Assembly (NCBI GenBank): GCA_963715985.1
Contig: CAVQSP010000019.1
Span: 1-18,618 of the forward strand
Length of the DNA: 18,618 nt
Direction: 5' to 3'
DNA from: an uncultured Thermoleophilia bacterium
GTDB taxonomy: Bacteria > Actinomycetota > Thermoleophilia > UBA2241
Shown here: in pieces, positions 2,334-18,380 of the stretch
Numbering within the stretch: the first letter of the stretch is position 1
Layout of the letters: each line of letters begins with the position of its first letter
The notes under the pieces: generated by a model
Database searches by the model: none
What the model saw: the letters and a program-made list of their open reading frames with translations, nothing else
What the model was told of the DNA's origin: nothing
Position numbers and translations under genes: made by a program

Positions 2334-2503
2334 ATTGACTTCCATGCGCTTTCCCCGGGTTGACTTGTCAAAGGACGATACCCCAAGTCAGGATGGGCCG
2401 AGCCGTGGAGGGGGCCGACGTTGGGGCCACAGGGACGGAAGAATAGGGCCCTGAAGACTGGATTCGACGCGAAGGGGCCGTCGGCGTGTCAAGCGGAGTG
2501 GGA

Positions 2504-3377: not shown

Positions 3378-3589
3378 CCGGCGCGCCCGGCTGACCACAC
3401 GCGCTACGCCGGCAGCACGGGCAGACGGCGAAGTGGGATCATGACTGCCACAGGAGGTTTCACGCCACGTCATGCCTCGGGACTCTTCCTGCTCAACGCC
3501 ATTTCGCTCGATGCCCCGGCGGCTCAGACGCATGGGGTGACGAGGGATTGTCACCCGGCGTGACACCCGCTTTCGCGTGACGGCCCGGT

Positions 3590-3916
3590 CTAGTGACCGG
3601 GTCGCCGGCGACAGAGGCCACACGTGCAGGCGTTTGCGTGGCGCCAGCCGTGCTCGATGCCGATGGCGTGCTCGAGGACGGCAGGCGGAAGCGCCGTCGG
3701 ATCGACCCCGGTCTGCAGGGCGTCGCCCCAGTCGTGGATGTCGAAGAGCTCGTCGTCCCAGTAGACCAGCGATTCGCCGTAATCGAAGAAGAAGGCCGGA
3801 AGGCCGCTCTCGCGCACCTGTGCTAGAGACAGCAGCACGGGTGGTCTGACGGCCCGCCAGACGACTTGGTGCAAGTGGGCCCTGCGAGCCTTAGCGTTGT
3901 CCCCCGGCGCGGCCAT
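3590..3916 (-). CDS. Hypothetical protein with C-terminal HxxxCxCxxC putative metal-binding motif
   Basis: Protein-like composition (FFFDYGESLVYWDDELFDIHDWGDAL), ends GWRHANACTCGLCRRRPGH. Start uncertain. Confidence 0.6.
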   Translation of the reverse strand: MAAPGDNAKARRAHLHQVVWRAVRPPVLLSLAQVRESGLPAFFFDYGESLVYWDDELFDIHDWGDALQTGVDPTALPPAVLEHAIGIEHGWRHANACTCGLCRRRPGH

Positions 3917-4382
3917 TGTCCCTGCATTCTGGACCCGCGCGCGAACGGCGTCTATGAGTCGCGCCGTTTCACCGTCCTGGCACCCCGGGGCCTTCAACGT
4001 TGACTCGTGACGGCGCCGCTGCGGAGTGGTCGCCCCAACCGTGCAGAGCCACTACGGCCGGTCGCGATTGCTCCTGCGGCCCGTGCTGCCCCTTGGTCGC
4101 TCCCCTGCGGGCCCCGCCGATCGCTTCTCGCTATCTGGACCAGGGTCTAGACGAATGGCCCTCTCGTCTCCGCAACGTCTTCATACGACAGTGTGAAGTG
4201 AGGGAGGCTCGCCCCTTCCTCGCCGATGGCCCCGGCGATGCTTGCACCGCCGGGGCCGCTTCGCGTGGCCGGCGCATCGGCCGACCGTGGGGCTTCTACA
4301 CGGCCCATTCAGCGCCTCTCAGCCCGCGGCAGGGTAGTCCCAGGCCACCCGCTTCATGCGGGGTGCGTGAGCGGCGATGCAC

Positions 4383-4652
4383 TCACCGGGGCCGTTGTGT
4401 CATGCGTATCGCCTTGAGCGCGGGATTGTCCGCGTCGTCGCTGTCGACCTTCGGTACGACGTGGCGGCCGCGATCCTCAAGCGTGGGCCCGAAGGCGGCG
4501 AGTCCTTTGCTCACGCGCTCTATGCTCGTCTGCGAGAGCATCATGCTCGGGTTGCGCACGAGCTCGCGGTCGGCGCGGCTGGACTCGATCATGACGCCGC
4601 GCTTGTGCAGGTCCCCGTGGGCGGCCTGCGCCAGCTCCCACGCCTGGCAGAC
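4383..4652 (-). pseudogene. Phage terminase small subunit (P27 family-like) remnant, N-terminus missing
   Basis: CQAWELAQAAHGDLHKRGVMIESSRADRELVRNPSM...LAAFGPTLEDRGR fits the P27 TerS pattern (C..a....a...l...G..i......v.NP....fGLTP..R), with GLTP degenerated to GPTL. Confidence 0.65.
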
Positions 4653-4655
4653 CTC

Positions 4656-4775
4656 GACCTGCGTCACAGCTTGGGCACGATCCAGATGGCGGCCGGCGCC
4701 TCACCCAGGGCGGTAGCCGAGGCGATGGGCCGTTCTGACGCCGGTGTCACCCTACGCACCTGCGTGCACGCGGGC
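4656..4775 (+). pseudogene. C-terminal fragment of a tyrosine recombinase/integrase, catalytically degenerate
   Basis: DLRHSLGTIQMAAGASPRAVAEAMGRSDAGVTLRTCVHA matches box II HxLRH...LGH...T..Y, with GH changed to GR and the catalytic Tyr to Cys. It lies next to the tRNA-Met 3' end. Confidence 0.8.
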
Positions 4776-4797
4776 ATTGGGGAGAGGCGGAAGAGAC

Positions 4798-4874
4798 TGG
4801 TAGCGGCGGTAGGACTCGAACCTACGACACGCGGATTATGATTCCGCTGCTCTGACCAGCTGAGCTACGCCGCC
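4798..4874 (-). tRNA. tRNA-Met (CAT), elongator type
   Basis: GGCGGCGTAGCTCAGCTGGTCAGAGCAGCGGAATCATAATCCGCGTGTCGTAGGTTCGAGTCCTACCGCCGCTACCA; anticodon stem GCGGA/TCCGC, loop ATCATAA, encoded CCA; lacks initiator features. Confidence 0.93.
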
Positions 4875-4887
4875 ACGGCGGATGCAT

Positions 4888-4916
4888 AAGGTATCACAGG
4901 CGCATAGGGGGCTCAA
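4888..4916 (-). promoter_or_regulatory. Sigma70-type promoter for tRNA-Met
   Basis: TTGAGC-17 bp-TACCTT on the minus strand, 13 bp upstream of the tRNA. Confidence 0.6.
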
Positions 4917-5024
4917 TCCTGCACCCAAGGCGGTCCGGCGGGCCTCCGCCGCGACCGGCGCGCACCGTCCGCTCCGCCTGTTCGTGCCTTCTTCAGAGGA
5001 CTCCACGAAGGCCTCTTCAGTCGG

Positions 5025-5053
5025 TTGAAAGCCTCACCTCTTTCCTGTAGCCT
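5025..5053 (+). promoter_or_regulatory. Sigma70-type promoter for tRNA-Tyr/tRNA-Thr
   Basis: TTGAAA-17 bp-TAGCCT, 13 bp upstream of tRNA-Tyr. Confidence 0.65.
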
Positions 5054-5066
5054 CTTGCGCGCTCCC

Positions 5067-5150
5067 GGGGGAGTGCCCGAGTGGTTAAGGGGGCGGACTG
5101 TAAATCCGTTGGCGCAGCCTACCCAGGTTCAAATCCTGGCTCCCCCACCA
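5067..5150 (+). tRNA. tRNA-Tyr (GTA)
   Basis: Acceptor stem GGGGGAG/CTCCCCC+ACCA, anticodon arm GCGGA-CTGTAAA-TCCGT, long variable arm, T-loop GGTTCAAATCC. Confidence 0.96.
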
Positions 5151-5154
5151 GCAG

Positions 5155-5230
5155 GCCCGGTTAGCTCAGTCGGCAGAGCACCTCCATGGTAAGGAGGGGG
5201 TCCGCGGTTCGAATCCGCGACCGGGCTCCA
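5155..5230 (+). tRNA. tRNA-Thr (GGT)
   Basis: GCCCGGT/ACCGGGC+TCCA acceptor, anticodon arm CCTCC-ATGGTAA-GGAGG, T-loop GGTTCGAATCC. Confidence 0.96.
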
Positions 5231-5373
5231 GCCTCTTCTCCTCCCCATTCGCGCAGGATCCCCGCCTCCATGGCGCCGAGCACCTGCCGCCCTTCCCCCG
5301 GGTCCTCCGCAGTCGCCCGACCATGTGGGCCTACACCAGGACGCAGCCCCCCCTGAATCAGGTGCGCTCCCAT

Positions 5374-5393
5374 ATTGTGACGGCTTTCGCAAT
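5374..5393. promoter_or_regulatory. Putative Rex operator or CRP/FNR-family binding site upstream of the hydrogenase operon
   Basis: ATTGTGACGGCTTTCGCAAT: 12/14 match to Rex TTGTGAA-N4-TTCACAA and 9/10 to CRP TGTGA-N6-TCACA; AT-rich patch in GC-rich DNA. Confidence 0.5.
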
Positions 5394-5647
5394 CAGGTAG
5401 CCTGTCCCGCACATCCTGTACCAGCGGGCCCGAAAGGAGGAACCTGGCAAGCTTGCACGCTGCGAGCGCATTTCGCTGTGGAGCACACGCATGCCGCCGA
5501 CCTGACACCGCCGCTCACGACGCCAGCGCAGCACGGAATGCGTCTTCGTGCGCCGATTCCCGACGTTCTCACCGCAATGGGCCAGACCGTCCCCACCGGC
5601 CGCTCGCCCGCTGCAGGAGAGAGACGTGCTCAACCTAGCGAGGTCCG

Positions 5648-6676
5648 ATGACTGCCTCATTCATCCGGAGTGACGACTTTGCCGCGTTTGTGACCGCCAT
5701 GATCGAGGCGGGCCCGGTCTACGGACCGGTGGCCAAACGCTCGCGCTTTGCCTTCGAGCGCCTGGAGACGCCGGACGAGCTGCGGCTCGACTACGACGTC
5801 TCCATCCTGCCGCCGAAGAAGCTCTTCTTCCCGCCCACGCAGGACCTGGTCCAGTTCGACGGCAACGGGTTCAGAGCCCCGCTGGAGCCGACCGAGAAGG
5901 TCCTCCTCGGCGTCCACTTCTATGACGTCAAGGCGATCGACCAGACCGACCTCCTCTTCTCGGAGCGCAACTACGACGTCAACTACATGGCCCATCGCCA
6001 GACCACCACCATCGTCGCCTCGAACGTGCAGAACGTCTCCACGCGTGCGTTCTTCGCCACGGTCGGTGCGGACGTGCAGCCCAAGGGCCACGACGCCTTC
6101 ATGACGGCGATCGGCTACGGCTACGTGTTCGAGCCGCTGACCGAGCGCGGCGAGGCATTGCTGGAGCACGGCGCCTTCAATCCGGCCTCCGAGGCGCAGA
6201 TCAAGGAGGCGGCAGACGTGAACGCGGCGGCGCTCGAGCAATGCCCCGAGAAGCTGGAGCACAGCACCGAGGACATCGCCGCCAAGGTGCGCGCCGCCTT
6301 CGGCAACGAAGAGATGTGGGCGACCATGGCTGCCGACTGCTTCTCCTGCGGCACGTGCAACACGATCTGCCCTACCTGCTACTGCTTCGACGTGCAGGAC
6401 ACGTGGAACGTCGACCAGACGTCGGGGCAGCGCACGCGCTACTGGGACGGCTGCCTCACCGAGGACTTCGCCAAGTGCTCGCTCGGCGAGGGCGCCTGCG
6501 AGAACTTCCGTGAAGAACGGGCCTCGCGCTTCCGCCACCGCATGATGCGCAAGGCGACGTACCTGAACGAGAAGCTGGGCGGGCCGGCGTGCGTCGGCTG
6601 CGGCCGCTGCTCGGCCGGCTGCACCGCCGACATCGCCGACCCGGTGCGCATCATTGATCAGATCATGGCCTCGTGA
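5648..6676 (+). CDS. hydB: Group 3b [NiFe] hydrogenase (sulfhydrogenase) beta subunit, 4Fe-4S dicluster protein (AsrA/HydB-like)
   Basis: YGPV, PPKKLFFPP, CFSCGTCNTICPTCYCF, RxRxWDGC, CVGCGRCSAGC; first gene of the operon. Confidence 0.9.
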   Translation: MTASFIRSDDFAAFVTAMIEAGPVYGPVAKRSRFAFERLETPDELRLDYDVSILPPKKLFFPPTQDLVQFDGNGFRAPLEPTEKVLLGVHFYDVKAIDQTDLLFSERNYDVNYMAHRQTTTIVASNVQNVSTRAFFATVGADVQPKGHDAFMTAIGYGYVFEPLTERGEALLEHGAFNPASEAQIKEAADVNAAALEQCPEKLEHSTEDIAAKVRAAFGNEEMWATMAADCFSCGTCNTICPTCYCFDVQDTWNVDQTSGQRTRYWDGCLTEDFAKCSLGEGACENFREERASRFRHRMMRKATYLNEKLGGPACVGCGRCSAGCTADIADPVRIIDQIMAS

Positions 6677-6686
6677 GGAGCGACAG

Positions 6687-7529
6687 ATGAATCACCAGTG
6701 CCACTGGACAGAAGTCGAGAACATCTTTCTGCCTCGTGAGGCCACCATCGTCCGCAGCGCCCAGGTGACTCCGACGGAGACCCACTTCACGCTGCAGATG
6801 GCGGACGGGCAGCCCATGGAGTACGAGCCCGGCCAGATCGTCGAGCTCTCGTTGTTCGGCTACGGCGAGATCCCCATCGGCGTCGCCAGCTCGCCGACGC
6901 GCAAGCACACCTTCGACCTAGTGGTGCGCTCCGTCGGGCGCGTCTCCGGTGCGGTCACCAAGCTGGACAAGGGTCAGTCAGTCTACATTCGCGGCCCGCT
7001 GGGGAAAGGCTTCGACCTCACCAAGCTCCGCGGGCAGGACGTGCTCATCGTGGCGGGCGGCATCGGCCTGTGCCCCACGCGGAGCCTCATCCAGTACATC
7101 CTGGACCGTCGCGACGAGTTCAAGCGCTTCATCCTGTTCTACGGGGCGCGCGAGCCCAAGCTGCAGCTGTTCACGGACGATCTCGAGAAGTGGCGGACGA
7201 CCCACGACGTCGAGTTCTTCGAGACCGTGGATCACGGCGACCCGAGCTGGGCGGGCAACGTCGGCGTCATCACAACGCTGTTCCCCAAGGTCGAGCTGTC
7301 GCAGCACACGCGCGCGGTCATCTGCGGGCCGCCGATCTTCTACCGGTTCGTGGTCCGCGAGCTCGACATGATCGGCATCCCCCGCGACAACGTCTTCGTC
7401 GACCTCGAACGCCGCATGAAGTGCGGCGTGGGCAAGTGCGGCCACTGCCAGATCAATGACAAGTACGTATGTGTCGACGGCCCGGTGTTCTCGTTCGCCG
7501 ACGTCCAGGGTCTTGAGGAGGCGTTCTGA
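6687..7529 (+). CDS. hydG: Group 3b hydrogenase gamma subunit, FAD/NAD(P)-binding 2Fe-2S protein (AsrB/HydG-like)
   Basis: SD GAGGAG before ATG 6687; YEPGQ, RGPLGKGF, AGGIGLCP, CGPP, ERRMKCGVGKCGHC...CVDGPVF. Confidence 0.92.
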   Translation: MNHQCHWTEVENIFLPREATIVRSAQVTPTETHFTLQMADGQPMEYEPGQIVELSLFGYGEIPIGVASSPTRKHTFDLVVRSVGRVSGAVTKLDKGQSVYIRGPLGKGFDLTKLRGQDVLIVAGGIGLCPTRSLIQYILDRRDEFKRFILFYGAREPKLQLFTDDLEKWRTTHDVEFFETVDHGDPSWAGNVGVITTLFPKVELSQHTRAVICGPPIFYRFVVRELDMIGIPRDNVFVDLERRMKCGVGKCGHCQINDKYVCVDGPVFSFADVQGLEEAF

Positions 7530-8281
7530 TGGGCAAGCCTAAGGTCGCGTTCTTCGATTTCACCTGCTGCGAGGGCTGCCAGATCGAGTTCACCAACTAC
7601 GGTGACGCGGCGTTCCTCGAGCTCATCAAGCACGTCGACGTCGTCGAGTTCCGCGAGGCCATGTCGGAGAAGACCACGGAGCCCATCACCATCGCCTTCG
7701 TCGAGGGCAGCTTCACGCGTGAGGCCGACCGCGCGCGGCTCGAGCGGATCCGCGAGCGCGCCGCCATCGTCATCGCCTACGGCCAGTGCGCGGCCGGCGC
7801 CGGCATCAACGCACTGAAGAACCACCTCTCCGACTACAAGCAGTTCGTGTACGGCGAGGACGCCGATCAGCCCCAGCTCGACTCGCAGAAGGCGCAGCCC
7901 ATCTCGGCGGCCATCAAGGTCGACTACTCGGCCTACGGCTGCCCCGTGAACAAGTACGAAGTCCTGCAGATCGTCGCTCACCTGCTGCACGGCAAGGAGC
8001 CGGTGATCCCCAACTATCCGGTCTGTGTGGAGTGCAAGCGCCGCGAGACCGTCTGCCGCTTCGACGAAGACGACCACTGCATGGGCATGGTCGCGCGCGC
8101 CGGATGCTCGGCGCCGTGTCCCGCCTACGGCGTCCCCTGCGAGGCGTGCCGCGGGTTCGTCGACCACCCCAACGTGCCCGCCCTCGAACGGGTGTTGGTG
8201 CACCGCGCCGGGTTCTCGCAGAAGCGGGCGGCCGAGAAGGCGCTCATGTTCACTGCCATTGACCTGGAGGCTACCTCATGA
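7529..8281 (+). CDS. hydD: Group 3b [NiFe] hydrogenase small (delta) subunit
   Basis: FTCCEGCQ, VEGS, GQCA, GCP, then CVECK...C..CMG...GCSAPCP...CEACRG; no Tat signal; TGATG overlap with the previous gene. Confidence 0.92.
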   Translation: MGKPKVAFFDFTCCEGCQIEFTNYGDAAFLELIKHVDVVEFREAMSEKTTEPITIAFVEGSFTREADRARLERIRERAAIVIAYGQCAAGAGINALKNHLSDYKQFVYGEDADQPQLDSQKAQPISAAIKVDYSAYGCPVNKYEVLQIVAHLLHGKEPVIPNYPVCVECKRRETVCRFDEDDHCMGMVARAGCSAPCPAYGVPCEACRGFVDHPNVPALERVLVHRAGFSQKRAAEKALMFTAIDLEATS

Positions 8282-9594
8282 CCACGAGTGCTCGTATCCG
8301 CGTCGACCACCTGACCCGCGTCGAGGGCCACGGCAACATCGTCGTCAATATCGCCGACGGCGTGGTCGAGAAGTGCGAGTGGCAGGTGCCGGAGGCCCCG
8401 CGCTTCTTCGAGTCCATGGTCCGCGGGCGCCACTACTCCGAGGTCGCCCGCATCACGAGCCGCATCTGCGGCATCTGCTCCGTGGGTCACACGCTCGCCT
8501 CGGTGAAGGCCACCGAGGAGGCGCTCGGCATCGAGGTCAGCGAGCAGAGCTGGAAGCTCCGCGAGCTGCTCAAGCACGCCGAGAACTTCGACTCGCACGT
8601 TCTGCACGTGAACTTCCTCGCGGCCCCCGACTTCCTCGGCGCGCCGTCGGTGTTCCCGCTGGTCGCGACGCACGCCGACGTGGTGGCGCGTGCCCTGCGC
8701 CTCAAGAGACTGGCGCACGAGTGGGGCTCGCTCATCGGCGGGCGTACCACCCACCCGATGAGCGTCGTCCCCGGCGGCATGGCGGCTGTGCCGACCACCA
8801 AGGAGCTCAAGGAGCTGCGGGAGCGACTTCTGGCCGCCGTGCCCGAGCTCGAGGCCACGGTCGCCACGGTCATCGCGCTGGCGCCCAACGTGCCGGCCTT
8901 CGACCGGCCCACCGAATACATCGCCCTGTCCAACGACAAGGACTATGGCCTGTACGACGGCGACATCCAGTCGGTGCTCCCCGACGGCACGAAGCAGCGC
9001 TACCCGGTCGCCGACTACAAGCAGGTGACCAACGAGTTCGTCGTGCCGCAGTCCACGGCCAAGTACACCAGACACAAGCTGGACTCCTACGCGGCGGGCG
9101 CCCTGGCGCGCTTCAACAACAACTACGACAGGCTCCATCCCGAGGCGAAAAAGGTCGCGGAGGTGCTCGGCATCCAGCCGATCTGCACCAACCCGTACAT
9201 GAACACGGTCGCGCAGGTCGTCGAGATCGCCTCGGACGTCTACGAGTCGGTCGCCCTGCTGGACGAGCTCATCGCCGCCGGGGTCGAGCTCGAGCCGCTC
9301 GTCGAGCCCACCAAGTTCGGCTCCGGCGCGGGCGCCACCGAGGTGCCGCGCGGCATCCTCTTCCACGAGTACAGCTACGATGACGCCGGCATGTGCCTCG
9401 GCGGCAACTGCATCATCCCGACCAACCAGAACCACAACAACATCCAGCACGACTTCGAGAAGCTCGTGCCTGAACTGGTCGCGCAGGACAAGAGCGAGAA
9501 GGAGATGGAACTGGCGCTCGAGATGCTCGTGCGCTCCTACGACCCCTGCATCTCGTGCTCGACGCACTACCTGGCCGTCAAGTTCGTGCGCTGA
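8278..9594 (+). CDS. hydA: Group 3b [NiFe] hydrogenase large (alpha) subunit
   Basis: TRVEGHG, PRFFE, L1 SRICGICSVGH, EVPRGILFH, L2 RSYDPCISCSTH plus an 8-residue cleavable tail. Confidence 0.97.
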   Translation: MTTSARIRVDHLTRVEGHGNIVVNIADGVVEKCEWQVPEAPRFFESMVRGRHYSEVARITSRICGICSVGHTLASVKATEEALGIEVSEQSWKLRELLKHAENFDSHVLHVNFLAAPDFLGAPSVFPLVATHADVVARALRLKRLAHEWGSLIGGRTTHPMSVVPGGMAAVPTTKELKELRERLLAAVPELEATVATVIALAPNVPAFDRPTEYIALSNDKDYGLYDGDIQSVLPDGTKQRYPVADYKQVTNEFVVPQSTAKYTRHKLDSYAAGALARFNNNYDRLHPEAKKVAEVLGIQPICTNPYMNTVAQVVEIASDVYESVALLDELIAAGVELEPLVEPTKFGSGAGATEVPRGILFHEYSYDDAGMCLGGNCIIPTNQNHNNIQHDFEKLVPELVAQDKSEKEMELALEMLVRSYDPCISCSTHYLAVKFVR

Positions 9595-9599
9595 GCAGG

Positions 9600-10055
9600 G
9601 TGCGCTATCTGGTCGGTGTAGGCAACTACATGGCCGGCGACGACGCCGTCGGCCCGCGTGTGGTGGAGCATGTCACGGTAAACGGCCTCGACCGCGACTT
9701 CGAGGCCGTTGACCTCTCCACCGACGCGCTCAGGCTGGTGGCGTACCTGAACTCCGAGACCGAGGCGGTGCTGGTGATCGACGCGGCGCAGCTGGGTCTA
9801 CCCCCCGGCGACTACCGCTTCTTCTCACCGGACGAGGTGGAGACGGAGAAGGAGCTGAGCGGCCTGACGACTCACGAGGGCGACGTGCTCAAGGTACTGG
9901 AGCTGGCGCGTGACGCCGGCTACCCGATCCCGCCCGTCGCCATCATGGGCATCGAGCCGTACGACATGGAGAGCGGGATCGAGTTGTCCGAGTGTCTGGG
10001 CGAGCGCGTGCCGGTGTATGCCGCTGCGGCGATCGAACACCTGGCGGGGCTGTGA
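9600..10055 (+). CDS. Hydrogenase maturation endopeptidase (HycI/HybD family)
   Basis: GVGNYMAGDDAVG, VIDAA, TTH, IMGIEP motifs. Start is GTG 9600 or CTG 9591 overlapping the hydA stop. Confidence 0.92.
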   Translation: MRYLVGVGNYMAGDDAVGPRVVEHVTVNGLDRDFEAVDLSTDALRLVAYLNSETEAVLVIDAAQLGLPPGDYRFFSPDEVETEKELSGLTTHEGDVLKVLELARDAGYPIPPVAIMGIEPYDMESGIELSECLGERVPVYAAAAIEHLAGL

Positions 10056-10161
10056 GCGGCGAACCTTCGGCGCGCCGCTCCACGCCGGGCCTGCGGCGGG
10101 AATCGAGCGGCGGACCTTCGGCGCGCCGCTCCACACCGGGCCTGCGGCGGGGACCGAGCGG
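10054..10161. repeat. Two 51-bp tandem copies plus a partial third, each with a hairpin, between convergent genes
   Basis: GAGCGGCG(A/G)ACCTTCGGCGCGCCGCTCCAC(G/A)CCGGGCCTGCGGCGGG.. at 10054 and 10105, partial at 10156; GAGCGGCG/CGCCGCTC stem. Confidence 0.85.
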
Positions 10162-10180
10162 TCCTCGACAGCCCCTGCCC

Positions 10181-11239
10181 TCACGCCGTCGGCGCCTCCG
10201 GGACGGTCACGGTGAACACGCTGCCGTGCCCCTCCTCGCTCTCGGCCGTGAGCCCGAACCGGTGGAGGCCGGCGATCTCGCGGGCGATGGCCAAGCCCAG
10301 GCCGGCGCCGTCCTGGTGGTGCTTCACCGCGAGGTCGGCCCTGTAGTCCTCGTCGAAGATCCGCGGGAGGCAGCGCTCCGGGATGCCGATGCCGTGGTCG
10401 CGGATGGAAAGCGTGAGCCGGCCGTCCGACAGCGACGTGAGGGCGATCTCCACCAGGCCGCCGTCGTGGGAGTAGATCACCGCGTTCTCGACGAGCTCGG
10501 AGAGAAGCGCAACCGTCTTCTGGGGGTCGCAGTCCACCAGATCGGGTCCGCCGTGCGGCAGGACCCGGATCTCGATGTCGCGCAGGGCGGCCGCCTCGGC
10601 GTGGCGCGCCACCGCCTCGTCGGTCACTTCGCCGAGGCGGACGGTGCTCATCTCGAGGCCGTCGCGGTCGACGCAGCGCAGGTCGGCCAGCATGCGCCGC
10701 TTGGCGAGGGCACCGAGCGCCGCGTCGCAGCGGGAGTGGATCTTCTCGACGATGTCGCGGGTGCGCTCGGGGATCTCCCCGGTGTAGCCGCCGAGGATCA
10801 CGTTGACGTAGCTCTGGATCGAGGACAGCGGCGACTTGACCTGATGCGAGGCCTGCCTCAGGTAGCGGGCCTTCTCGAGGTTCGCACGCTCGCCGACGGC
10901 GTCGATCTCGGCGAGCAGGTGAGCGATGAAGCGCGTGCCGGCGGCGCCGATCAGGCAGCTGTCCGGGTGTGTGCTCGCCTCGAGCACCGCGAGCACGTCC
11001 GCGTCGCCGCCGGTCTCGAGGACGAGGTCGACCTCGCCGTCGCCGGTGAGTTCGTCGAAGCGACCGTCGGTCCGGCAACGGATGCCGTTGTCGCGGGCGA
11101 GTGTCACCCCCGGGGCCGCAGGGTCCGCGTCGAACACGTAGCGGACCTCGACCCCGGGTACGCCGAGGAGCGCCCTGAGGATCGCGAGGCCCTGATCTCC
11201 TGCGCCCACGAGGGCGATGATGTACGTGTCCTGTCCCAT
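10181..11239 (-). CDS. Soluble sensor histidine kinase with N-terminal Rossmann-like (Gfo/Idh/MocA-like) domain
   Basis: N-terminus IIALVGAGDQG...VRYVFDADPAAPG...VDLVLETGG; H-box ASHQVKSPLSSI; N-box ELVENAVIYS; G1 DHGIGI; G2 GAGLGL; no transmembrane helix. Alternative start at 11254. Confidence 0.9.
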   Translation of the reverse strand: MGQDTYIIALVGAGDQGLAILRALLGVPGVEVRYVFDADPAAPGVTLARDNGIRCRTDGRFDELTGDGEVDLVLETGGDADVLAVLEASTHPDSCLIGAAGTRFIAHLLAEIDAVGERANLEKARYLRQASHQVKSPLSSIQSYVNVILGGYTGEIPERTRDIVEKIHSRCDAALGALAKRRMLADLRCVDRDGLEMSTVRLGEVTDEAVARHAEAAALRDIEIRVLPHGGPDLVDCDPQKTVALLSELVENAVIYSHDGGLVEIALTSLSDGRLTLSIRDHGIGIPERCLPRIFDEDYRADLAVKHHQDGAGLGLAIAREIAGLHRFGLTAESEEGHGSVFTVTVPEAPTA

Positions 11240-11337
11240 CCTGTCCTGTTCCATCCTGTCCTGTCCCTGTTTGACGGCGGCTATGATAGCTGGGCCGGTG
11301 AGAGTGTCCGAGCCCGACATTCAAATGGAGGTATGTC

Positions 11338-11733
11338 GTGAAGCGAGTCTACGTCATCGACGATGAACCGAGCATCGTGGAGTCGGTCTCGATGGTCCTC
11401 GAGAGCAGCGGCTACGTGGTCGGGTCCCAGAACGACGACAAGGACGTCGTCGCCAACGTCGTGGAGTTCGGCGCCGACCTTGTGATCATCGACGTCATGC
11501 TCCCCGAGGACACGGGCGCCGGGTTCAAGATCGCGCGTGACCTTCAGGCCGACGAGCGCACAACGGCCCTGCCGCGCCTCATGCTCACCGCCGTCAACGA
11601 GGCCGGCATCTACGTCGGAAAGTTCACGAACAAGGACCTGGACGAAGCGTGGCTCCCCGTGCAGGAGTTCGTGGAGAAGCCGGTCGTCCCCGAGCTGCTT
11701 CTGGCGAAGGTCGAGGCTCTCTGCCCGAGCTGA
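11338..11733 (+). CDS. Single-domain response regulator (receiver only)
   Basis: SD GGAGGT then GTG; VIDDE, IIDVMLP (phospho-Asp), MLTA, EKP; no output domain. Confidence 0.93.
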   Translation: MKRVYVIDDEPSIVESVSMVLESSGYVVGSQNDDKDVVANVVEFGADLVIIDVMLPEDTGAGFKIARDLQADERTTALPRLMLTAVNEAGIYVGKFTNKDLDEAWLPVQEFVEKPVVPELLLAKVEALCPS

Positions 11734-11830
11734 CGGGCTGGGAGCCCCGCCGGCCTCGCGGGCGGCGCCACCGCTCGCCTGCTCACGGCGACTCCCGCCT
11801 CGAGCGCTCGGCCGGGTCTCCTCTGAGCCG

Positions 11831-13303
11831 CTAGGGCCGCCGAGGTTCCGTCGGCGAGCACGAGGCGGCCGCGCGACCGGCGTGTTCGCCGTCCGCGGCC
11901 GCCTCCGCAGCCGACCCGCAGCCCTTCGCGGCGCCGGCGAGGAAGAGGCGGGGGCCGTGCGCAGCGAGCACCGTCGTGGCAGCGGCGCCGTCGAGGGTCA
12001 CGGGCGCGAGCGCGAAGCGCCCCTCGGCAAGAGCCTGCCGGGCGAGCTCCGCGCCCGCACGCCCGCCGACGGCCATGCACACGGTGTCGCAGGCGATGCG
12101 CGCGGTCCGCGGCCGTGCGTGGTCGTCGTCCCGGAGTACGAGCGAGACGGCGCCCACAGACGTCCTGCCGTGCCCGATAATGTCGCGCAGGCCCGTGTGA
12201 AGCGGGATGCCCGACGACTCGAGGCCCAGACGCTCGTCCGCCGCCACCTGGCGCGCCGGGCGGCGATCGGCGACAGCCGCCACCGCCACACCGTGCGCCG
12301 TGAGCTCGGCCGCCAGGGCGTACCCGTCGCTGCGGTCGGTGACGAGCACGACGGCGCGCCCCGGTCGCACGCCGCCGCGAAGCAGCCTGCGGGCGGCGCC
12401 GGCGGCGATGACGCCGGGCAGGTCGCCGCCGCGGAACGGCAGAAGCAGCTCGTGCGCGCCGGCGGCCAGCACCACCGCCGCCGGCTCCATCAGCACGAGG
12501 TCGTCGCCGTCGGTCAGGGCGACCACGCCTTCGTCGTACCAGCCCGCCACCTCGGCCGGGGCGAGCACCTCCACGCGCGGATGCTGCCGCACGGCGCGCT
12601 CGAGGACCTCGACGCGACCTCGGCCGGAGCCCGTGGGGGCCGCCGCGCCGCCCAGAGCGGGGTGCCTCTCGGCGAGCACCACCTCAGCTCCGCCCTCGGC
12701 GGCCGCCAAAGCAGCGCTGAGACCGGCCGGCCCGCCGCCGGCCACCAGCACGCCGACACCGGCGCGCCGGCGCAGACGCGCCCCGGCCAGCCGCCGCGCC
12801 GCCTCGGCGCTCGGCAGGTCACCCTGGCCGGCGGCACGGGCCAGGAGACGCTCGGCGGTGCTCCAGAGGCGCGGCGACCGGCGGAACCAGCGGTAGTAGA
12901 AGCCCGCGTGCAGCAGCGGGGCGGCCAGCTCGCCGCCGCGCATCAGGTCGAACTCCGCCGACGGCCACGCGTGCTCCCGCTCCACGACCATGCCCTCCCG
13001 CACGGGCGTCACGCAGGTGCGCACCCCGGGGAGCCCGTCCACGCGCATGGCACAGCAGGAGCAGGTGCCGTTGCCGCAGCGCAGGCCACGGGGGCGGTGA
13101 TACTTGGAGCTGCGCCCGAACACGCGCACACCGTGCGCGACGAGCGCGGCAGCGACGGTGTCGCCCTCGAGGGCCACGATGGGGCGGTCGTCGAAGACGA
13201 AACGGACGGGCCGCCGCTCCGCTCCGGCCTCCCGCATGCGCAGGGCGCCGGACCCCTCACCGCGGGCCGGCCGGCCGGCCCCCGGATCCCGCCCGGTCTT
13301 CAC
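11831..13303 (-). CDS. Sarcosine oxidase alpha-like / proline dehydrogenase alpha-like subunit (2Fe-2S + dinucleotide-binding), no folate domain
   Basis: GDTVAAAL, GRSSKYHRPRG, CGNGTCSCC...RTC, AWPS.EFD, AGFYYRWF, VAGGGPAGLSAA; only 490 aa. Confidence 0.85.
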   Translation of the reverse strand: MKTGRDPGAGRPARGEGSGALRMREAGAERRPVRFVFDDRPIVALEGDTVAAALVAHGVRVFGRSSKYHRPRGLRCGNGTCSCCAMRVDGLPGVRTCVTPVREGMVVEREHAWPSAEFDLMRGGELAAPLLHAGFYYRWFRRSPRLWSTAERLLARAAGQGDLPSAEAARRLAGARLRRRAGVGVLVAGGGPAGLSAALAAAEGGAEVVLAERHPALGGAAAPTGSGRGRVEVLERAVRQHPRVEVLAPAEVAGWYDEGVVALTDGDDLVLMEPAAVVLAAGAHELLLPFRGGDLPGVIAAGAARRLLRGGVRPGRAVVLVTDRSDGYALAAELTAHGVAVAAVADRRPARQVAADERLGLESSGIPLHTGLRDIIGHGRTSVGAVSLVLRDDDHARPRTARIACDTVCMAVGGRAGAELARQALAEGRFALAPVTLDGAAATTVLAAHGPRLFLAGAAKGCGSAAEAAADGEHAGRAAASCSPTEPRRP

Positions 13304-14541
13304 GTGTCCTCACCCGTGCTCACGACCAGGGAGGGCTCGACGATGAGGTCGCCGCTGCGCAGGCGCTCGAGCCCGAAACGGGCGAGCAGCGCCGGCGCCC
13401 GGCCGGTGGCGATCAGCTCGCCCAGCAGAGTCGCGCCGGCCGGCGCACCCATGAACCCGTACACCCAGCCGCAGTCGAGCACCAGGCCCTCGAGCTCGGG
13501 TACCCACCCAAGCAGCGGGGCGGCATCCTCGGTCTGGGACACCACACCCGCCCACTGGCGCATCATGCGAGCACCGGCCAGCGCCGGGAAGATCTGCGTG
13601 AACTTCGCCGCCATGTCACGCGCTCCGGCGAGCGAGGCGCGCAAGCTCTGCCCCGCTCGCGCGCGCCGCGGCTCCGTGCCGCCGACGAACTCGCCGCGCG
13701 TCGTCTGGTGACAGTAGGCGAGGTGCGCGGGAGAGCTGACGGCGGGACGCAGAAACGGACGCAGCGGCTCTGTCACCATCGCCTCCAGGACGAAGCTCCG
13801 CAGCGGCAGCTCCACGCCGGCGAGGCGGGCGAGGTCCGCGGCCATGCCGCCGGCGGCATCAACGACGATCGGTGCAGCCACGTGGCCGCGTGGCGTGGAC
13901 ACGCCGGTCACGGCGCCGGCCGAGGTCTCCACGCCGGTCACCTCGGTGTATGGGTGGATCTCGGCGCCGAGCCGCGACGCGGCCGCGGCGTAGGCCCACA
14001 CCACGGCGTCGTGGTGGGCGAAGCCGGCGTCTGGCTGGTACATGGCGCCGCGGGCCAGGCCGGAGGCCAGGGCCGGCGCCGCCTCGCGCGTCTCGGCGGC
14101 GTCCAATACCCGGGTGCGCAGCCCCGACTCGTGCTGCCGGCGGACGTGCCCCCGGAAGGCGGCGAGCTCCTCGTCGCTTCCGGCAAGGACCAGGTAGCCG
14201 GACGGCGTGAAGAGCACGTTGAAGTCGAGCTCCGCCGAGAGCGTGCGCCAGCGCCGCAGGCTGTCGTCGAAGAGGCCGATCCACTCGGGAGAGGCGAAGG
14301 CGGAGCGGATGAGCTCGCCGTTGCGGCCGCTCGCCCCGGCGCCCGGATAGGCGGCGTCGAGCACCGCGACGCGCCCGATGCCGCGCCGCGCCAGGTCGTA
14401 CGCCAGAGCGAGACCCTGGACACCGGCGCCGACGATGACGACGTCGTAGGCGCGCCGGAGCTCGCGCGGGCAGGCGCCGGGGATCACCCGGCCGCGGGCG
14501 CAGCGTGGCGGCGCCCGCGGCAGGGCCGCGCCCTCCGTCAC
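13300..14541 (-). CDS. FAD-dependent oxidoreductase (DAO family), sarcosine oxidase beta-like
   Basis: YDVVIVGAGVQG, GASGRNGELIRS, QPDAGFAHHDAVVWAYA, RQWAG, CGWVYGFMGAP. Confidence 0.9.
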   Translation of the reverse strand: MTEGAALPRAPPRCARGRVIPGACPRELRRAYDVVIVGAGVQGLALAYDLARRGIGRVAVLDAAYPGAGASGRNGELIRSAFASPEWIGLFDDSLRRWRTLSAELDFNVLFTPSGYLVLAGSDEELAAFRGHVRRQHESGLRTRVLDAAETREAAPALASGLARGAMYQPDAGFAHHDAVVWAYAAAASRLGAEIHPYTEVTGVETSAGAVTGVSTPRGHVAAPIVVDAAGGMAADLARLAGVELPLRSFVLEAMVTEPLRPFLRPAVSSPAHLAYCHQTTRGEFVGGTEPRRARAGQSLRASLAGARDMAAKFTQIFPALAGARMMRQWAGVVSQTEDAAPLLGWVPELEGLVLDCGWVYGFMGAPAGATLLGELIATGRAPALLARFGLERLRSGDLIVEPSLVVSTGEDT

Positions 14542-14819
14542 TTCTCGGCGCCTGGCGCGGCGGCCGCCAGCGTGCCCAGCCGCACGGGCGAGAGGGGCGG
14601 CCGCACCGGCGGCGCCGGCACGTCCGCGAGCTCGCGACCGGTGAGCTCGGCCAGCAGGCGGCGCACGGCCTCGCCGCAGCTCTTGCCCTGGCAGGGACCC
14701 GTGAAGGCGCCGGTGAACCGCTTCAGCGTCTCCACGTCGGTGTAGCCGGCCGCCACGGCGCGACGCACGTCGCCGGCCGTGACGTCACGGCAGAGGCAGA
14801 GGATGACCCGGTCGTCCAT
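14538..14819 (-). CDS. Small BFD-like (2Fe-2S)-binding subunit
   Basis: MDDRVILCLCRDVT...ETLKRFTGAFTGPCQGKSC...RPPLSPV; overlaps the start of the beta-like gene. Confidence 0.88.
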   Translation of the reverse strand: MDDRVILCLCRDVTAGDVRRAVAAGYTDVETLKRFTGAFTGPCQGKSCGEAVRRLLAELTGRELADVPAPPVRPPLSPVRLGTLAAAAPGAEK

Positions 14820-14880
14820 CACGCCGGTCGCCGGCCTGCACGCGCGCGCCCGCGCCCTGCCCGTCCCACCGCGAACGCCG

Positions 14881-16075
14881 TCAGTACGCGCACGTCTGCG
14901 TGACGTCCACGTGGATGTCCCGGCGGTTGCACTCCGCGAAGTAGGCCTCCGGCGGGATGCAGGCCTCACCGCCGAAGGCGCCGCGCTCAGTGATGACCCC
15001 CGCCCCAGCAGCAGCACCGTGACGGCGGAGAGGAAGCCCACGGTGAACGCCCCGCACGACATCCCCCACGCCGGGTACGGGTGCTGGATGCTCTCCAGCC
15101 GGTAGTCCTGCACCTGCCCGTCCTTCGTGCCGCGCACGTCGACGCGGAGCACCTTGTGGTCGTCGGGCGGCGGCGGTGTGGACGGAAGCCGCCGCCGCCT
15201 CCCCGCCGCCGCCAGCGAGCGGTCCACCAGCGCCATCAGGACGTCACGCGGCACGACGGACGTCCGGCCGACCTGAAGCGCCTCCTTGTCCGCGAGGCCG
15301 AGGTCCACGACGAAGCGCAGCTTGTCCTCGAACGCCTTGGGCAGCGAAAGCTGGAAGCTGACCTCGCGGATGCCCTTGTCGCGGAACGAGACGGGGATCG
15401 TGTGCGGCTCCGAGTGGATGGTGTAGAAGCAGGTCTGCGTGCCGACCGGCTCGGGGAAGTCGATCACCTCGGCGCCGGAGAACGGCGTCATCTCCTGCCA
15501 GTCGCCGTCCTTGAAGATCCACGGGTTCATCATGAACTCGTTGAGCAGCGTATCGAGGGAGTACGGCGGTACGAGGGGAGCCCAGGCCGCCGCGAAGTTG
15601 ACGATGCCGTCCCTGATGCGCACCCACTCGACGGTGTCGAGGCGCAGGGCGGCGTATCTCGCCATGACGTTGACGATGCCGGGGGCCGAGCCGGAGCCGC
15701 AGACGGCGGTGAGCCCGGCGGCGGCGAAACGGTCGCTCATCGCGAGCTGCTTCTTGGCCCAGTGGAAGAGGCCGCCCATGTCGGTGTAGTGACAGCCGGC
15801 GGCGAGGCACGCCTCCATGATGCCCTCGTTGAAGTAGGGCAGCGTGGCGTTGAGACACACGTCGCAGCCGTCGAGAACGGCGGCCATCGCCGCGTGGTCG
15901 GTGACGTCCACGACCGCCTTCGAGACCTTGGCGGAGTCGAGCGACTCGCCACGCCGCGCAGCGCCGCGGCGTCCGCGTCGGCCAGCACGAGCGCCTCGAC
16001 CTCGTCGTGCTCGACGAACTCCCGCACGGCGCCCAGCGCCATCCTGCCGGCGCCGCCCATCACGCAGACCTTCAC
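14881..16075 (-). CDS. Saccharopine dehydrogenase-family NAD(P)-dependent oxidoreductase (two apparent frameshifts, ~15942 and ~15000)
   Basis: SD GGAGGAG then GTG; MKVCVMGGAGRMA / VDVTD..CLNATLPYFN..CHYTDMGG..GSGSAPGIVNV..HSEPHTIP / GVITERGAFGGEACIPPEAYFAECNRRDI*. Confidence 0.85.
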
Positions 16076-16251
16076 CGGCGCTCCTCCCCGCCCCGGCGGC
16101 CGGCGACCCGGTTCACCTCCCCGTGCCTGCTCTCACGCGTCGACCGCCCGGCGGCCGGGCCGGACCGGGCTCGACGCTGGCACCGGGCGCGATGACGGAC
16201 AAGGGGCGGGACGGAAGGCATGCCGACGAGCCCAACCACTGGCCCGGCGCC

Positions 16252-17323
16252 TCAGCAGATGCGCGGCAGCAACTCCCCCACCGGCATGTCGAGGACGCGG
16301 CGCGTGCCGAACGCCGTGCGAAGGGCCACGCGGCCGGGGTGCGCGGCCGTCACGAAGCCGATGCGCCGCGCCTCGACGCCGTACGGCGTACCCCGCATGG
16401 CCGAGACCACGGCATCGGCCGCCTCCGGCGCGACTACGGCGACCATCTTGCCCTCGTTCGCCAGCGAGTAGGGATCGTATCCGAGCAGTTCGCAGACCGA
16501 GCGCACGGCCGGCGAGACCGGGACGGCCGCCTCCTCGATCTCGACGCCGAGATCGGCCTCTTCGGCCAGCTCCGCAAGCACCGTGGTGAGGCCGCCGCGC
16601 GTCGGGTCGCGAAGGAACCGCAGGGCTGGGGCATCCACCTGGCCGCCGGCTGCAGACGCATCCGACGGCGGCGAGGCCCCGGCGTCGCGAGCTGCAGCCA
16701 CCGCCGCCTCGACGAGTCCCCACAGAGGGGCGCAGTCGCTGCGCACGTCGGCGGTGAAGCTTGAACTCGCCCCGTGCCGCCAGGACGGCCACAGCGTGGT
16801 CGCCGATACCGCCGCTCAGGACGACCGCGTCGCCCTCACGGACCGCGGTCGCTCCCAGCCGGTGCCGCACGACGACATCCCCCACGCCGGTCGTGGTGAT
16901 GAAGAGGCCGTCGCAGGCGCCGCGCTCCACCACCTTGGTGTCGCCGGTGACGATCGGCACGCCGACCTCGCGCGCGGTGTCCGCGATGCTGGCGCAGATG
17001 GCGTTCAAGCTGTCGAGAGCGAACCCCTCCTCGATGATGAAGGCGGCGGCGAGCGCCAGCGGCCGCGCCGCCGCCGTCGCCAGGTCGTTCACGGTGCCGG
17101 CCACCGCAAGGCGGCCGATGTCGCCGCCGGGGAAGGTGAGCGGCTGCACCACGTGGCTGTCGGTGGTGAAGGCGATGCGGCCGCCGGTGGCGAGCTCGGC
17201 CGCATCGTCCAGACGCTCGAGCACCGGATTGGCGAAGGCGCGTACGAAGACGTCCCGGACGAGGTCGCGGTACAGCCTGCCGCCACTGCCGTGACCCAGG
17301 AGGACGCGGCCGCCGTCAGTCAT
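16252..17323 (-). CDS. hypE: Hydrogenase maturation protein HypE (one apparent frameshift ~16760)
   Basis: LGHGSGG, FTTDSHVV, FPGGDIGRLAVAGTVNDL, VTGDTKVV / SDCAPL, RDPTRGG, ANEG, C-terminal GELLPRIC. Confidence 0.93.
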
Positions 17324-18380
17324 CGATGCCGCGGAAGCGATAGCGAGCGGCGCAGGCGCCCTCGCTGCTGACCATGCAGGCGCCCACGGGCGCCTGCGGC
17401 GTACAGCGAGTACCGAACAGCGCGCAGGCCGCCGGGTCCAGCACACCGCGCAGGACCTCGCCGCAGCTGCAGCATGCCGGCTCCTGCGGCGAGCCGGCGT
17501 CCACGGCGAAGCGGCGCCCGGCGTCCATGTCTTCGAACTCCCGGCTCAGCGCGAGCCCGGACTCGGGGATCACGCCCAGCCCGCGCCAGTCGGCGTCGGC
17601 CGGCTCGAACACCCGCTCGAGCAGCTGCTGCGCCACGACGTTGCCCTCGGGGCGCACCGCGCGGGTGTACTCGATCTCGACCGCCGGCCGAGTCTGGCGC
17701 ACGATCCTCAGCAGCGCCCGGAGGATGTCCCCCGGCTCGAAGCCCGCCACGACGCCGGCCACCCGGTACTCGCCGGCCAGGAACTCGTAGCAGGCGGTGC
17801 CGGTGATCACGCTGACGTGGCCGGGCAGCAGGAACCCGCCGATAGGCGTCTCACCGAGATCGAGCAGCGCCCGCAGCGCCAGCGGCATGGTCTTGTGCAT
17901 GCTGAGCACGGAGAAGTTGTGGACCCCGCTCGCACGAGCCTCCAGAAGGGCGGCGGCGACGGTGGGCGCCGTGGTCTCGAAGCCGATGCCGGCGAACACG
18001 ACTTCACGATCCGGCTCCGCGGCGGCGATGGCGACGGCATCCCGCGCCGAGTAGACGACGCGCACGTCGGCGCCCGCGGCGCGCTCCGCCGCAAGGGTGG
18101 TCGCCGAGGCGGGCACGCGGATGAGGTCACCGAACGTCGTCACGGTGACCTGGGGCAGGCGGGCGAGCGCGACCATCTGGTCGAGATCGGAGACGCACGT
18201 GACGCAGACCGGACAGCCCGGGCCCGAGATCAGACTCAGACCGGCCGGAAGAAGTTCGCGCAGCCCGTAGCGGGCGACGGCCATGGTGTGTGTCCCGCAC
18301 ACCTCCATCACGGTGAGAGCGGCGGGAGCGGCGGCCTGCAGCTCGGCCGCGAGGCCACGGAGGGTCTCAGTCTGGTCCAT
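17316..18380 (-). CDS. hypD: Hydrogenase maturation protein HypD
   Basis: MEVCGTHT, SGPGCPVCV, GFETTAP, PGHVS, CSCGEVLRG, CTPQAPVGACMVSSEGACAA. Confidence 0.96.
   Translation of the reverse strand: MDQTETLRGLAAELQAAAPAALTVMEVCGTHTMAVARYGLRELLPAGLSLISGPGCPVCVTCVSDLDQMVALARLPQVTVTTFGDLIRVPASATTLAAERAAGADVRVVYSARDAVAIAAAEPDREVVFAGIGFETTAPTVAAALLEARASGVHNFSVLSMHKTMPLALRALLDLGETPIGGFLLPGHVSVITGTACYEFLAGEYRVAGVVAGFEPGDILRALLRIVRQTRPAVEIEYTRAVRPEGNVVAQQLLERVFEPADADWRGLGVIPESGLALSREFEDMDAGRRFAVDAGSPQEPACCSCGEVLRGVLDPAACALFGTRCTPQAPVGACMVSSEGACAARYRFRGIDD

Follow-up and report, generated by a model that had tools for sequence, protein, structure and literature searches.

The window analysed here, i.e., the whole stretch of 18,618 nucleotides, corresponds to an entire contig (C19, 18.6 kb) of a 4.35-Mb metagenome-assembled genome (MAG; 88.8% complete, 7.3% contaminated) of an uncultured Thermoleophilia bacterium. 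It harbors, beside the genes of a group 3b-type NiFe hydrogenase, a histidine kinase gene and a divergently oriented receiver gene, which together form a real two-component system with a Rossmann-type sensor and without a family name. A preliminary description of the sequence had proposed that the kinase senses NAD(P)(H), reading the pyridine-nucleotide pool that the neighboring hydrogenase uses, and that the output-less receiver acts by protein contact or phosphorelay. The gene calls rest on Pfam and NCBIfam models, and the features of the system are the following:

10181-11320, minus strand: histidine kinase open reading frame (ORF) as called (P0001, 379 amino acids; Pfam)
10181-11239, minus strand: whole histidine kinase gene with its most likely start, Met28 (352 amino acids; homologue starts, conserved codon, AlphaFold2 (AF2) model)
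10949-11224, minus strand: Rossmann-type sensor domain, residues 33-124 (AF2, Foldseek, phmmer, conservation)
11189-11206, minus strand: GxGxxG loop, residues 39-44 (GAGDQG; sequence)
11129-11131, minus strand: Asp64, the end of VFD at residues 62-64 (sequence)
10676-10945, minus strand: signalling helix and dimerisation and histidine phosphotransfer (DHp) hairpin, residues 126-215 (AF2)
10844-10846, minus strand: phospho-acceptor His159, followed by Gln160 (H-box alignment)
10199-10648, minus strand: catalytic and ATP-binding (CA) domain (HATPase_c), residues 225-374, with N279, D308xGxG312, F322 and G338xGxG342 (Pfam, AF2, alignment)
11240-11337, no strand: divergent intergenic region between the kinase start and the receiver
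11338-11733, plus strand: stand-alone receiver (P0002, 131 amino acids) with D8, D9, D52, T84 and K114 (Response_reg only in Pfam, E 1e-13, residues 4-125 of 131)
11605-11658, plus strand: family-specific insertion of the receiver, residues 90-107 (gap in RpaA and PhoB)
5375-5403, plus strand: putative hyh promoter TTGTGA-N17-TAGCCT with the inverted repeat TGTGA-N6-TCGCA (CRP/FNR-like shape)
5410-5647, plus strand: conserved leader of about 240 nucleotides upstream of hyhB (8-locus alignment, 71% mean column identity)
5648-9594, plus strand: hyhB (5648-6676), hyhG (6654-7529), hyhS (7529-8281) and hyhL (8278-9594), group 3b-type NiFe hydrogenase (Pfam, NCBIfam)
9555-10055, plus strand: hycI-type hydrogenase maturation protease (Pfam HycI, E 7.8e-17)

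Met28 is the most likely start of the kinase, which corrects the ORF call to 10181-11239: the position of Met28 coincides with the start of most of 28 close homologues, an ATG or GTG at this position and an upstream AGGA are conserved across the related loci, and residues 1-30 have a predicted local distance difference test score (pLDDT) below 50 in the full-length AF2 model. With this start, the intergenic region between the divergent kinase and receiver genes is 98 bp long. It embeds a palindrome (GCTATGATAGC, 11280-11290), found once in the window versus 0.07 matches expected, whose core ATCATAGC is retained in 8 out of 13 aligned loci (one of these has A in place of the leading G) and which might represent a functional element; on the receiver strand, the same region carries TATGAT, a -10-like hexamer. 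A tandem duplication of 15 nt (GGACAGGATGGAACA-type), located at 11240-11275 immediately upstream of where the kinase probably starts, is present in the window only and not in 12 related loci. The kinase and receiver genes belong to separate, divergent transcription units, and the kinase gene is convergent with hycI.

The analysis of the portion preceding the kinase core revealed a domain that escapes the profile libraries: the Pfam scan of kinase residues 1-167 returned zero matches even at E 10, and no NCBIfam model matches the sensor domain. The AF2 model of residues 28-150, built on an alignment of 72 sequences (pLDDT 93.6, predicted template modelling score (pTM) 0.85), shows five strands with the topology b1-aA-b2-aB-b3-aC-b4-aD-b5-helix. 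In the Foldseek search, the top match was 4lrt_B (E 3.6e-5, query TM-score (TMq) 0.65), followed by 1nvm and 4jn6; acylating acetaldehyde dehydrogenases thus occupy the top ranks with their NAD-binding domains, and Gfo/Idh/MocA enzymes solved with NAD come next. When the sensor sequence was compared by phmmer with all PDB sequences, 4lrs_B was the only match (E 1e-4, domain residues 7-76). VIA-align, which is independent of Foldseek, returned many tied Rossmann domains (Z 9-11), including those of Rex and KTN (the latter with NAD+, 1lss_A, Z 9.2), and the neighbours of the sensor in the ESM Atlas are labelled GFO_IDH_MocA, DapB_N, NAD_binding_3 or Semialdhyde_dh. The large number of tied matches indicates that the fold itself is generic, the sequence affinity being with the aldehyde dehydrogenase group. 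No transmembrane segment was detected in the kinase, whose Kyte-Doolittle mean over 19 residues peaks at 1.64, on b1-aA of the Rossmann domain. The models, therefore, support an input of the Rossmann dinucleotide-binding type joined directly to the kinase core. The preliminary description had predicted a cytoplasmic kinase with a Rossmann-like domain as the sole input before HisKA/HATPase, carrying a GAGDQG loop and an Asp at the end of VFD, and had proposed structure prediction and a fold search for this domain; both motifs are present, and the search led to a Rossmann fold nearest to the NAD domains of acylating acetaldehyde dehydrogenases.

The sensor domain is not restricted to this kinase. 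An exhaustive HMMER search with the domain disclosed 134 representatives with an E value of 1e-3 or lower, 52 of which were scanned against Pfam; the outputs fused to the domain include MCPsignal (soluble receptors of about 285 amino acids), Sigma54_activat, GGDEF, GAF/PAS with kinase and receiver, and SpoIIE with an anti-sigma kinase. At the N-terminus of several relatives, weak matches to GFO_IDH_MocA, DapB_N, NAD_binding_3 or CoA_binding were found, and in NCBIfam, relatives match TIGR03215/NF006157 at E 7e-6 to 8e-8. The preliminary description had likened this input to that of BkdR-type activators; sigma-54 activators carrying the domain were indeed found, but their best NCBIfam models (NifA, NorR, PrdR) cover the AAA+ part only. 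In the alignment of 72 members, G39 and D64 are invariant (72/72), G41 is present in 71 and G44 in 63 sequences, A69-P70-G71 in 64, 62 and 62, respectively, and G105 in 67 out of 71, A75 being nearly invariant. The family signature was recognised: a domain of about 100 amino acids at the N-terminus, ahead of diverse outputs, in which G-x-G-x-x-G is followed by an invariant Asp behind beta2, by A-P-G and, past beta4, by E-x-T-G. Judging from these comparisons, the domain appears to be a widespread input module recruited by signalling proteins, for which Pfam and NCBIfam have no dedicated model. No paper on Rossmann-type input domains in kinases or chemoreceptors was found in a literature search whose coverage left most subscription journals outside.

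In the kinase core (residues 150-376), Pfam recognises HATPase_c (E 1.2e-21) and, below its cut-off of 26.9 bits, HisKA (E 1.6e-4, 22 bits); the core aligns with VicK (4i5s, E 1.7e-27) and HK853 (E 1.2e-21). All four boxes (N, G1, F and G2) are intact, and N279, D308, G310, G312, F322, G338, G340 and G342 are invariant columns of the CA domain in close homologues. His159 aligns with the phospho-acceptor His of both reference kinases, SHQVKSPL corresponding to SHELRTPL; the motif is H159-Q160-V-K-S163 rather than H-E/D-x-x-T/N, with no acidic residue after the His, and 20 close homologues share H159, Q160, K162 and P164 without exception. The atypical His-Gln (HQ) H-box noticed in the preliminary description is, thus, real. 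The motif HQ(V/L)K(S/A)P..IQSY is common to Rossmann kinases of about 395 amino acids sharing 32-45% identity, other Rossmann kinases having ordinary HELRTPL boxes, and in a metagenome scan with the HQ H-box pattern, 475 out of 595 matches were confirmed relatives, many of them without a Rossmann domain. Since it is shared across this wider kinase clade, the HQ H-box is a trait of a subfamily and not a defect.

In the full-length AF2 model (pLDDT 78.9), two helices (126-178 and 185-215) are followed by the CA domain; the first is a single helix that begins directly after the last Rossmann strand and contains His159. Modelled as a homodimer together with NAD, residues 28-150 reached an ipSAE interface score of 0.84 in three runs, the best control giving 0.00, with a contact agreement of at least 89% and a partner pLDDT of at least 91; in the calibration, which is only roughly applicable here, the mark was reached by 20 out of 30 solved homo-pairs and 1 out of 23 single chains. 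The modelled interface consists of the C-terminal helices in parallel and of residues 3, 6, 27-30, 71-72 and 95, the residues beyond the helix forming the N-terminal edge of the sheet. The homodimer model lends support to the self-binding of this fragment without proving it.

The receiver is of the CheY-like single-domain type, with the acidic pocket, the phospho-acceptor Asp, the Thr and the Lys all present. As anticipated in the preliminary description, it is divergent from the kinase, consists of a receiver domain only and carries an insertion before the EKP motif, exceeding PhoB/RpaA by 7-10 residues in the stretch from alpha4 to this motif. A total of 252 homologues were found, and the 120 listed span 130-150 amino acids; the insertion motif SAINE-G-Y-G-FS--D-D--WLPV--F-EKP is kept in all the partner receivers of distant kinases. 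Downstream of the receiver, a gene for a STAS-domain protein (anti-sigma antagonist type) lies in two related loci (L021, 8116-8760, and L023, 8163-8576). These neighbours hint at partner switching, though they occur in only 2 out of 10 loci examined, and the STAS protein was dropped as a constant partner of the pair on this ground.

In order to assess the association of the pair with hydrogenase genes, 15 orthologous loci from species-representative Thermoleophilia-type MAGs were compared (kinase identity 51-85%), four further loci with catalytic-core matches only having been dropped from the count. In all 14 informative loci, hycI-hyhLSGB is located at the kinase 3' end, the fifteenth locus ending at the kinase, and the receiver adjoins the kinase in all 13 informative loci, the other two beginning inside the kinase. 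The flank beyond the receiver varies from locus to locus (MFS, hydrolases, STAS, rpoB, CLC channel, inositol monophosphatase). The sox-like genes flanking the receiver in the window were considered as genes conserved with the pair and rejected, only two weak matches having been found, at the thresholds applied, among the related loci probed with the proteins of the window: a SoxB-like one 9 kb away in L015 and a saccharopine-dehydrogenase-like one in L032, about 5 kb beyond the receiver (29% identity, E 4e-28).

A sample of 300 genomes of the class, which overlaps the 15-locus set since both come from the same collection, contains orthologues of the kinase only in the family of the window, and in 10 genomes these lie beside hyh: eight by their coordinates, G286, where a kinase fragment is found at a contig end, and G291 (locus L032, C17:6000-25000), where the hyhBGSL-hycI-kinase-receiver block is whole but broken by many frameshifts, the locus being either decaying or rich in assembly errors. 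G092, whose genes are split over two contig ends, is compatible with the same arrangement, and G251 was left out of the judgement. Outside this lineage, it is the pairing of kinase and receiver that persists: the kinase has a receiver as its neighbour in 11 out of 12 full-length distant metagenome loci (guanine-cytosine (GC) content 0.32-0.68, kinase identity 32-55%), these receivers sharing 43-67% identity with that of the window, and in 5 out of 6 loci from another family of the phylum. In a distant low-GC locus, L037, hypA, hycI and a NiFe large subunit gene are found at the kinase 3' end, convergent as in the window. The linkage to the hydrogenase is a robust though lineage-restricted synteny, from which a control of the hydrogenase might be surmised. 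According to a figure legend of PMC7325909, a 'phoR' kinase gene, which may or may not belong to the present family, is drawn in a hydrogenase neighbourhood.

The four hyh genes have the composition of a group 3b enzyme, with an AsrA-like Fe-S beta subunit (Fer4_22), a FAD/NAD(P) gamma subunit (FAD_binding_6/NAD_binding_1/DHODB_Fe-S_bind), a small delta subunit (Oxidored_q6) and a large alpha subunit (NiFeSe_Hases). The best NCBIfam models are those of the sulfhydrogenases ShyB/C/D/A and HydB/G/D/A, and all the scores fall below the equivalog cut-offs, so that the enzyme is a divergent member of group 3b. Upstream of hyhB, the exact motif TTGTGA-N17-TAGCCT, which may act as the hyh promoter, occurs in the window and in 6 out of 14 other loci scanned, with variants in further ones. 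The RNAalifold analysis of the leader gave 45 pairs, nine of them with compensatory changes, and a weak covariation term (+1.33); no Rfam family matches the leader at E 1 or better, and CTCGC/GCGAG elements within it could alternately pair with the Shine-Dalgarno region. The presence of these elements, together with a receiver devoid of a DNA-binding domain, suggests that hyh transcription may be controlled by another factor and that the receiver may act on a protein. In four RNA-labelled libraries, contigs on hyhBGSL, the kinase and the receiver were retrieved, mostly 90-95% alike and, thus, deriving from relatives; such contigs cannot prove transcription or give levels, and the lack of contig cover at 5300-5516 is uninformative. 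A second NiFe hydrogenase (large subunit) is encoded on contig C9 of the genome.

On the whole, the interpretation that we favour, and to which we assign about an even chance, is that a kinase with a NAD(H)-type Rossmann sensor and a bare receiver tune the adjacent group 3b hydrogenase. The non-catalytic Rossmann domain of the kinase dimer would descend from that half of acylating aldehyde dehydrogenases which binds NAD+/CoA, and it would most likely bind an adenine dinucleotide with a free 2'-OH, NAD+/NADH being the leading candidate. Each sensor is predicted to pack on a parallel coiled coil running unbroken into the His159 helix, so that the state of a ligand bound where the sheet exposes its C-terminal edge might be relayed to the DHp hairpin, its occupancy or redox state shifting the kinase/phosphatase balance. 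The phosphoryl group would then pass to the adjacent 131-amino-acid receiver which, having no DNA-binding domain, would have to act by protein contact, presumably through the conserved alpha4-beta5 insertion. The pair could in this way adjust hydrogen production or uptake to the load of reducing equivalents, as its constant position beside the 3b hydrogenase in the lineage of the window suggests.

Several observations weigh against this interpretation. In the kinase, the Gln in position 160 replaces an acidic residue that, in kinases of the HK853/EnvZ type, is needed for autophosphorylation; the window protein has a G where the family has T104 (62/71); and the NAD included in the homodimer model carried no score. 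The receiver has no output domain, the CRP/FNR-like repeat and the long leader before hyhB point to other regulators, and three matches to the Rex-type DNA-binding domain (PF06971) exceed the cut-off on other contigs of the genome. As for the linkage, two relatives, G236 (92% complete) and G181 (90% complete), encode a hydrogenase of the same clade, with hyh-hycI followed by unrelated genes and no such kinase, and in G044 the kinase-receiver pair lies beside msrAB, the search at E 1e-60 or better giving no HyhL in this genome. In other families, a HyhL with 35-50% identity is encoded by about 50 genomes, and the query retrieved no orthologue of the kinase in them, G111, G273 and G284 giving only weak matches (about E 5e-6) on other contigs. 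Moreover, hydrogenase genes are found nearby in only one of about nine informative distant metagenome loci and in none of the six phylum-level loci. The link to hydrogenase loci holds for the lineage of the window (14/14 loci) and for almost none of the distant pairs, which, apart from L037, are surrounded by transporter, acyl-CoA, stress and housekeeping genes. Since these pairs are mostly away from hydrogenases, the pair looks older than the linkage, like a general-purpose module captured beside hyh in one lineage.

These last data lead to an alternative, unlikely in our opinion, in which kinase and receiver regulate the cytoplasmic state in a general, housekeeping role and their adjacency to hyh in one lineage is an inherited gene order without functional coupling. 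Beyond the hydrogenases that lack the kinase in G236 and G181, it would account for the unrelated neighbours of the distant pairs (PknB/PP2C, DJ-1/GntR, sigma-70, MetRS, ABC transporters, msrAB) and for the fact that the two genes are transcribed as separate units, that of the kinase being convergent with hycI. However, a merely inherited order fits poorly with a block that is retained while the other flank has been replaced in every locus examined, at kinase identities of 51-85%, and with the same kinase/hycI/NiFe arrangement in the unrelated L037.

A further alternative concerns the ligand. In Rossmann folds, an Asp after beta2 selects a ligand with a free 2'-OH, i.e., NAD(H) and not NADP(H), and GxGxxG followed by such an Asp is the classic NAD(H) signature; according to these general rules, the invariance of D64 (72/72) is in favour of a ligand such as NAD(H). 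In this respect, NAD(H) is the more plausible of the two pyridine nucleotides, and CoA is its main rival. In the acylating aldehyde dehydrogenase relatives, CoA reportedly occupies the site that also receives NAD+, according to the title of Lei et al. (2008) as cited in PMC4762007. It might, thus, be imagined that the sensor binds CoA/acyl-CoA, or else FAD, ADP-ribose or a F420-related cofactor, and reports the carbon/acyl-CoA status rather than NADH/NAD+. The nearest homologues of the domain, the weak CoA_binding and F420_oxidored Pfam matches of some relatives, and the pair of L040, located beside enoyl-CoA hydratase and ADP-forming acyl-CoA synthetase genes, speak for this possibility, which we regard as rather improbable: the glycine loop and the Asp conform to the NAD(H) signature, the neighbouring enzyme in the lineage is a pyridine-nucleotide-linked hydrogenase, and the CoA matches are weak (E 1e-4 to 1e-6). 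Group 3b enzymes are described as NADP-coupled in PMC7325909. As Asp64 favours NAD(H), the earlier proposal that the kinase reads the very pool used by the hydrogenase becomes uncertain.

Lastly, it is very doubtful that the Rossmann domain has no ligand and serves for dimerisation or as a scaffold only, or that the protein is mainly a receiver phosphatase owing to its HQ H-box, since, even though the domain is cut to five strands without the catalytic half of its enzyme relatives, takes part in the predicted dimer interface and precedes a Gln in place of the catalytic acid, a glycine loop and an Asp64 kept in 72 sequences with many outputs are hard to explain without a ligand, and the abundance of HQ(L/V)K(A/S)P (475 relatives out of 595 matches) argues for working kinases.

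To our knowledge, Rex-type repressors are the main known case of bacterial proteins that sense pyridine nucleotides directly, and two-component kinases are held to follow redox changes only at one remove, via haem, flavin, quinones, Fe-S clusters or thiols. The word 'Rossmann' is absent from a 2021 review (PMC8063818). It can be tentatively imagined, although we consider it unlikely, that the window encodes the first histidine kinase reading NADH/NAD+ (or acyl-CoA) directly, that its receiver docks on the hydrogenase, and that the module is a general one. If so, the phosphorylated receiver would dock via its alpha4-beta5 insertion on the 3b hydrogenase or on its diaphorase subunits, and the enzyme would be switched post-translationally rather than through transcription; at the same time, a sensor of about 100 residues would wire the cofactor status into chemotaxis, sigma-54 transcription, cyclic di-GMP signalling and partner switching. 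The minimal Rossmann/coiled-coil/kinase protein is a clean soluble test object, with its cognate receiver and a candidate target encoded next to it. A confirmed ligand would annotate a sensor domain found in many signalling families and offer a lead on the regulation of fermentative or NAD(P)-linked hydrogen metabolism in uncultured soil/wetland Actinomycetota.

The remaining features of the window are as follows:

4798-5230, both strands: three tRNA genes (Rfam scan)
11831-15911, minus strand: sarcosine-oxidase/opine-oxidase-like cluster (Pfam, NCBIfam)
16133-17446, minus strand: hypE (Pfam, NCBIfam)
17316-18608, minus strand: hypC-hypD ORF (Pfam)

The Rfam scan of the window gave no match other than the three tRNAs. 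Another contig of the same MAG, C6, is 97% identical to window positions 4798-18618; the possibility that it carries a paralogue was rejected, the whole locus being represented there as a strain variant. The similarity ends exactly at the 3' end of the tRNA-Met gene (4798-4874, minus strand). The unshared region, 1-4797, has a lower GC content; a 25-nt-spaced repeat occurs there six times at 777-1023, hairpin repeats are numerous at 1000-1650, and the product of a minus-strand ORF at 4383-4667 matches a phage small terminase (Terminase_4, 25.1 bits versus a cut-off of 24.7). The region is probably an element integrated at the tRNA. In the gap between hycI and the kinase 3' end, a tandem duplication of about 56 nucleotides (10046-10160) is present, of which C6 seemingly has one copy fewer, the BLAST segments overlapping by 57 nucleotides. 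The hypE gene is frameshifted in the window, with the AIRS N-domain and AIRS_C in different frames, and lies in one frame in C6, so that either the assembly is wrong here or one of the strains carries a pseudogene. The adjacent ORF, which reaches the contig end, seems to encode a HypC-HypD fusion, since HypC is recognised at residues 2-56 and HypD, in full, at 85-425. In the flavoenzyme cluster that separates the receiver from the hyp genes, Fer2_4 is combined with Pyr_redox_2, as in the N-terminal half of SoxA; the cluster also encodes a SoxB-like DAO and a saccharopine-dehydrogenase domain in fusion with a SO_alpha_A3/BFD 2Fe-2S domain, and in its composition it resembles opine or sarcosine oxidase systems.

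The comparison with known systems reveals partial similarities with several of them. The closest relatives of the sensor, both by sequence and by structure, are the acylating acetaldehyde dehydrogenases (DmpF 1nvm, HsaG 4jn6, and the T. curvata enzyme 4lrs/4lrt), with which it shares the pattern G-x-G-x-x-G ... D-P-x-x-x-G-L-x-R-A; however, the invariant Asp64 aligns with a Gly in 4lrs, the Asp of the enzyme aligning with Asp66, and the Rossmann domain of the kinase ends at residue 124, without the dimerisation/catalytic domain and the active-site Cys of these enzymes, so that no enzymatic role is expected for it. Rex is a dimer with a non-catalytic Rossmann domain acting as a cytoplasmic dinucleotide sensor, as is supposed for the kinase of the window, and it matches the sensor in fold (5zz5_A, Z 9.5, root-mean-square deviation 5.1, 110 aligned residues; 3keo_A, Z 9.2), but, unlike the aldehyde dehydrogenases, it is not a sequence relative; its domain is joined to a winged-helix DNA-binding domain, whereas that of the window is joined to a HisKA kinase via a coiled coil, and no match to the Rex winged-helix (PF06971) was found in P0001 with Pfam. 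The KTN/RCK domains (TrkA, Kef, Mja218; Z 9.2-9.8) are Rossmann domains too, and they gate another protein by means of a nucleotide, as the sensor might do, their output being a channel and that of the window a kinase; no match to the TrkA_N Pfam model was found in the window protein or in the 52 relatives scanned. As regards two-component systems encoded with hydrogenase genes, HoxJ/HupT-HoxA/HupR with HoxBC/HupUV (group 2b) consist of a sensory hydrogenase, a PAS kinase and a NtrC-type regulator. A table of HydDB lists group 2b as histidine-kinase-linked H2 sensors. The architecture of the window is different, as the preliminary description had maintained: only the four-subunit 3b type is encoded, without a sensory hydrogenase, neither PAS nor Sigma54_activat nor HTH domains occur in the pair, and the receiver has no output domain. 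Finally, the DHp and CA core is homologous to that of WalK/VicK and HK853, from which the kinase of the window differs in being soluble, in having H-Q-x-K-S/A-P instead of H-E-L-R-T-P, and in carrying a Rossmann domain as its sensor.

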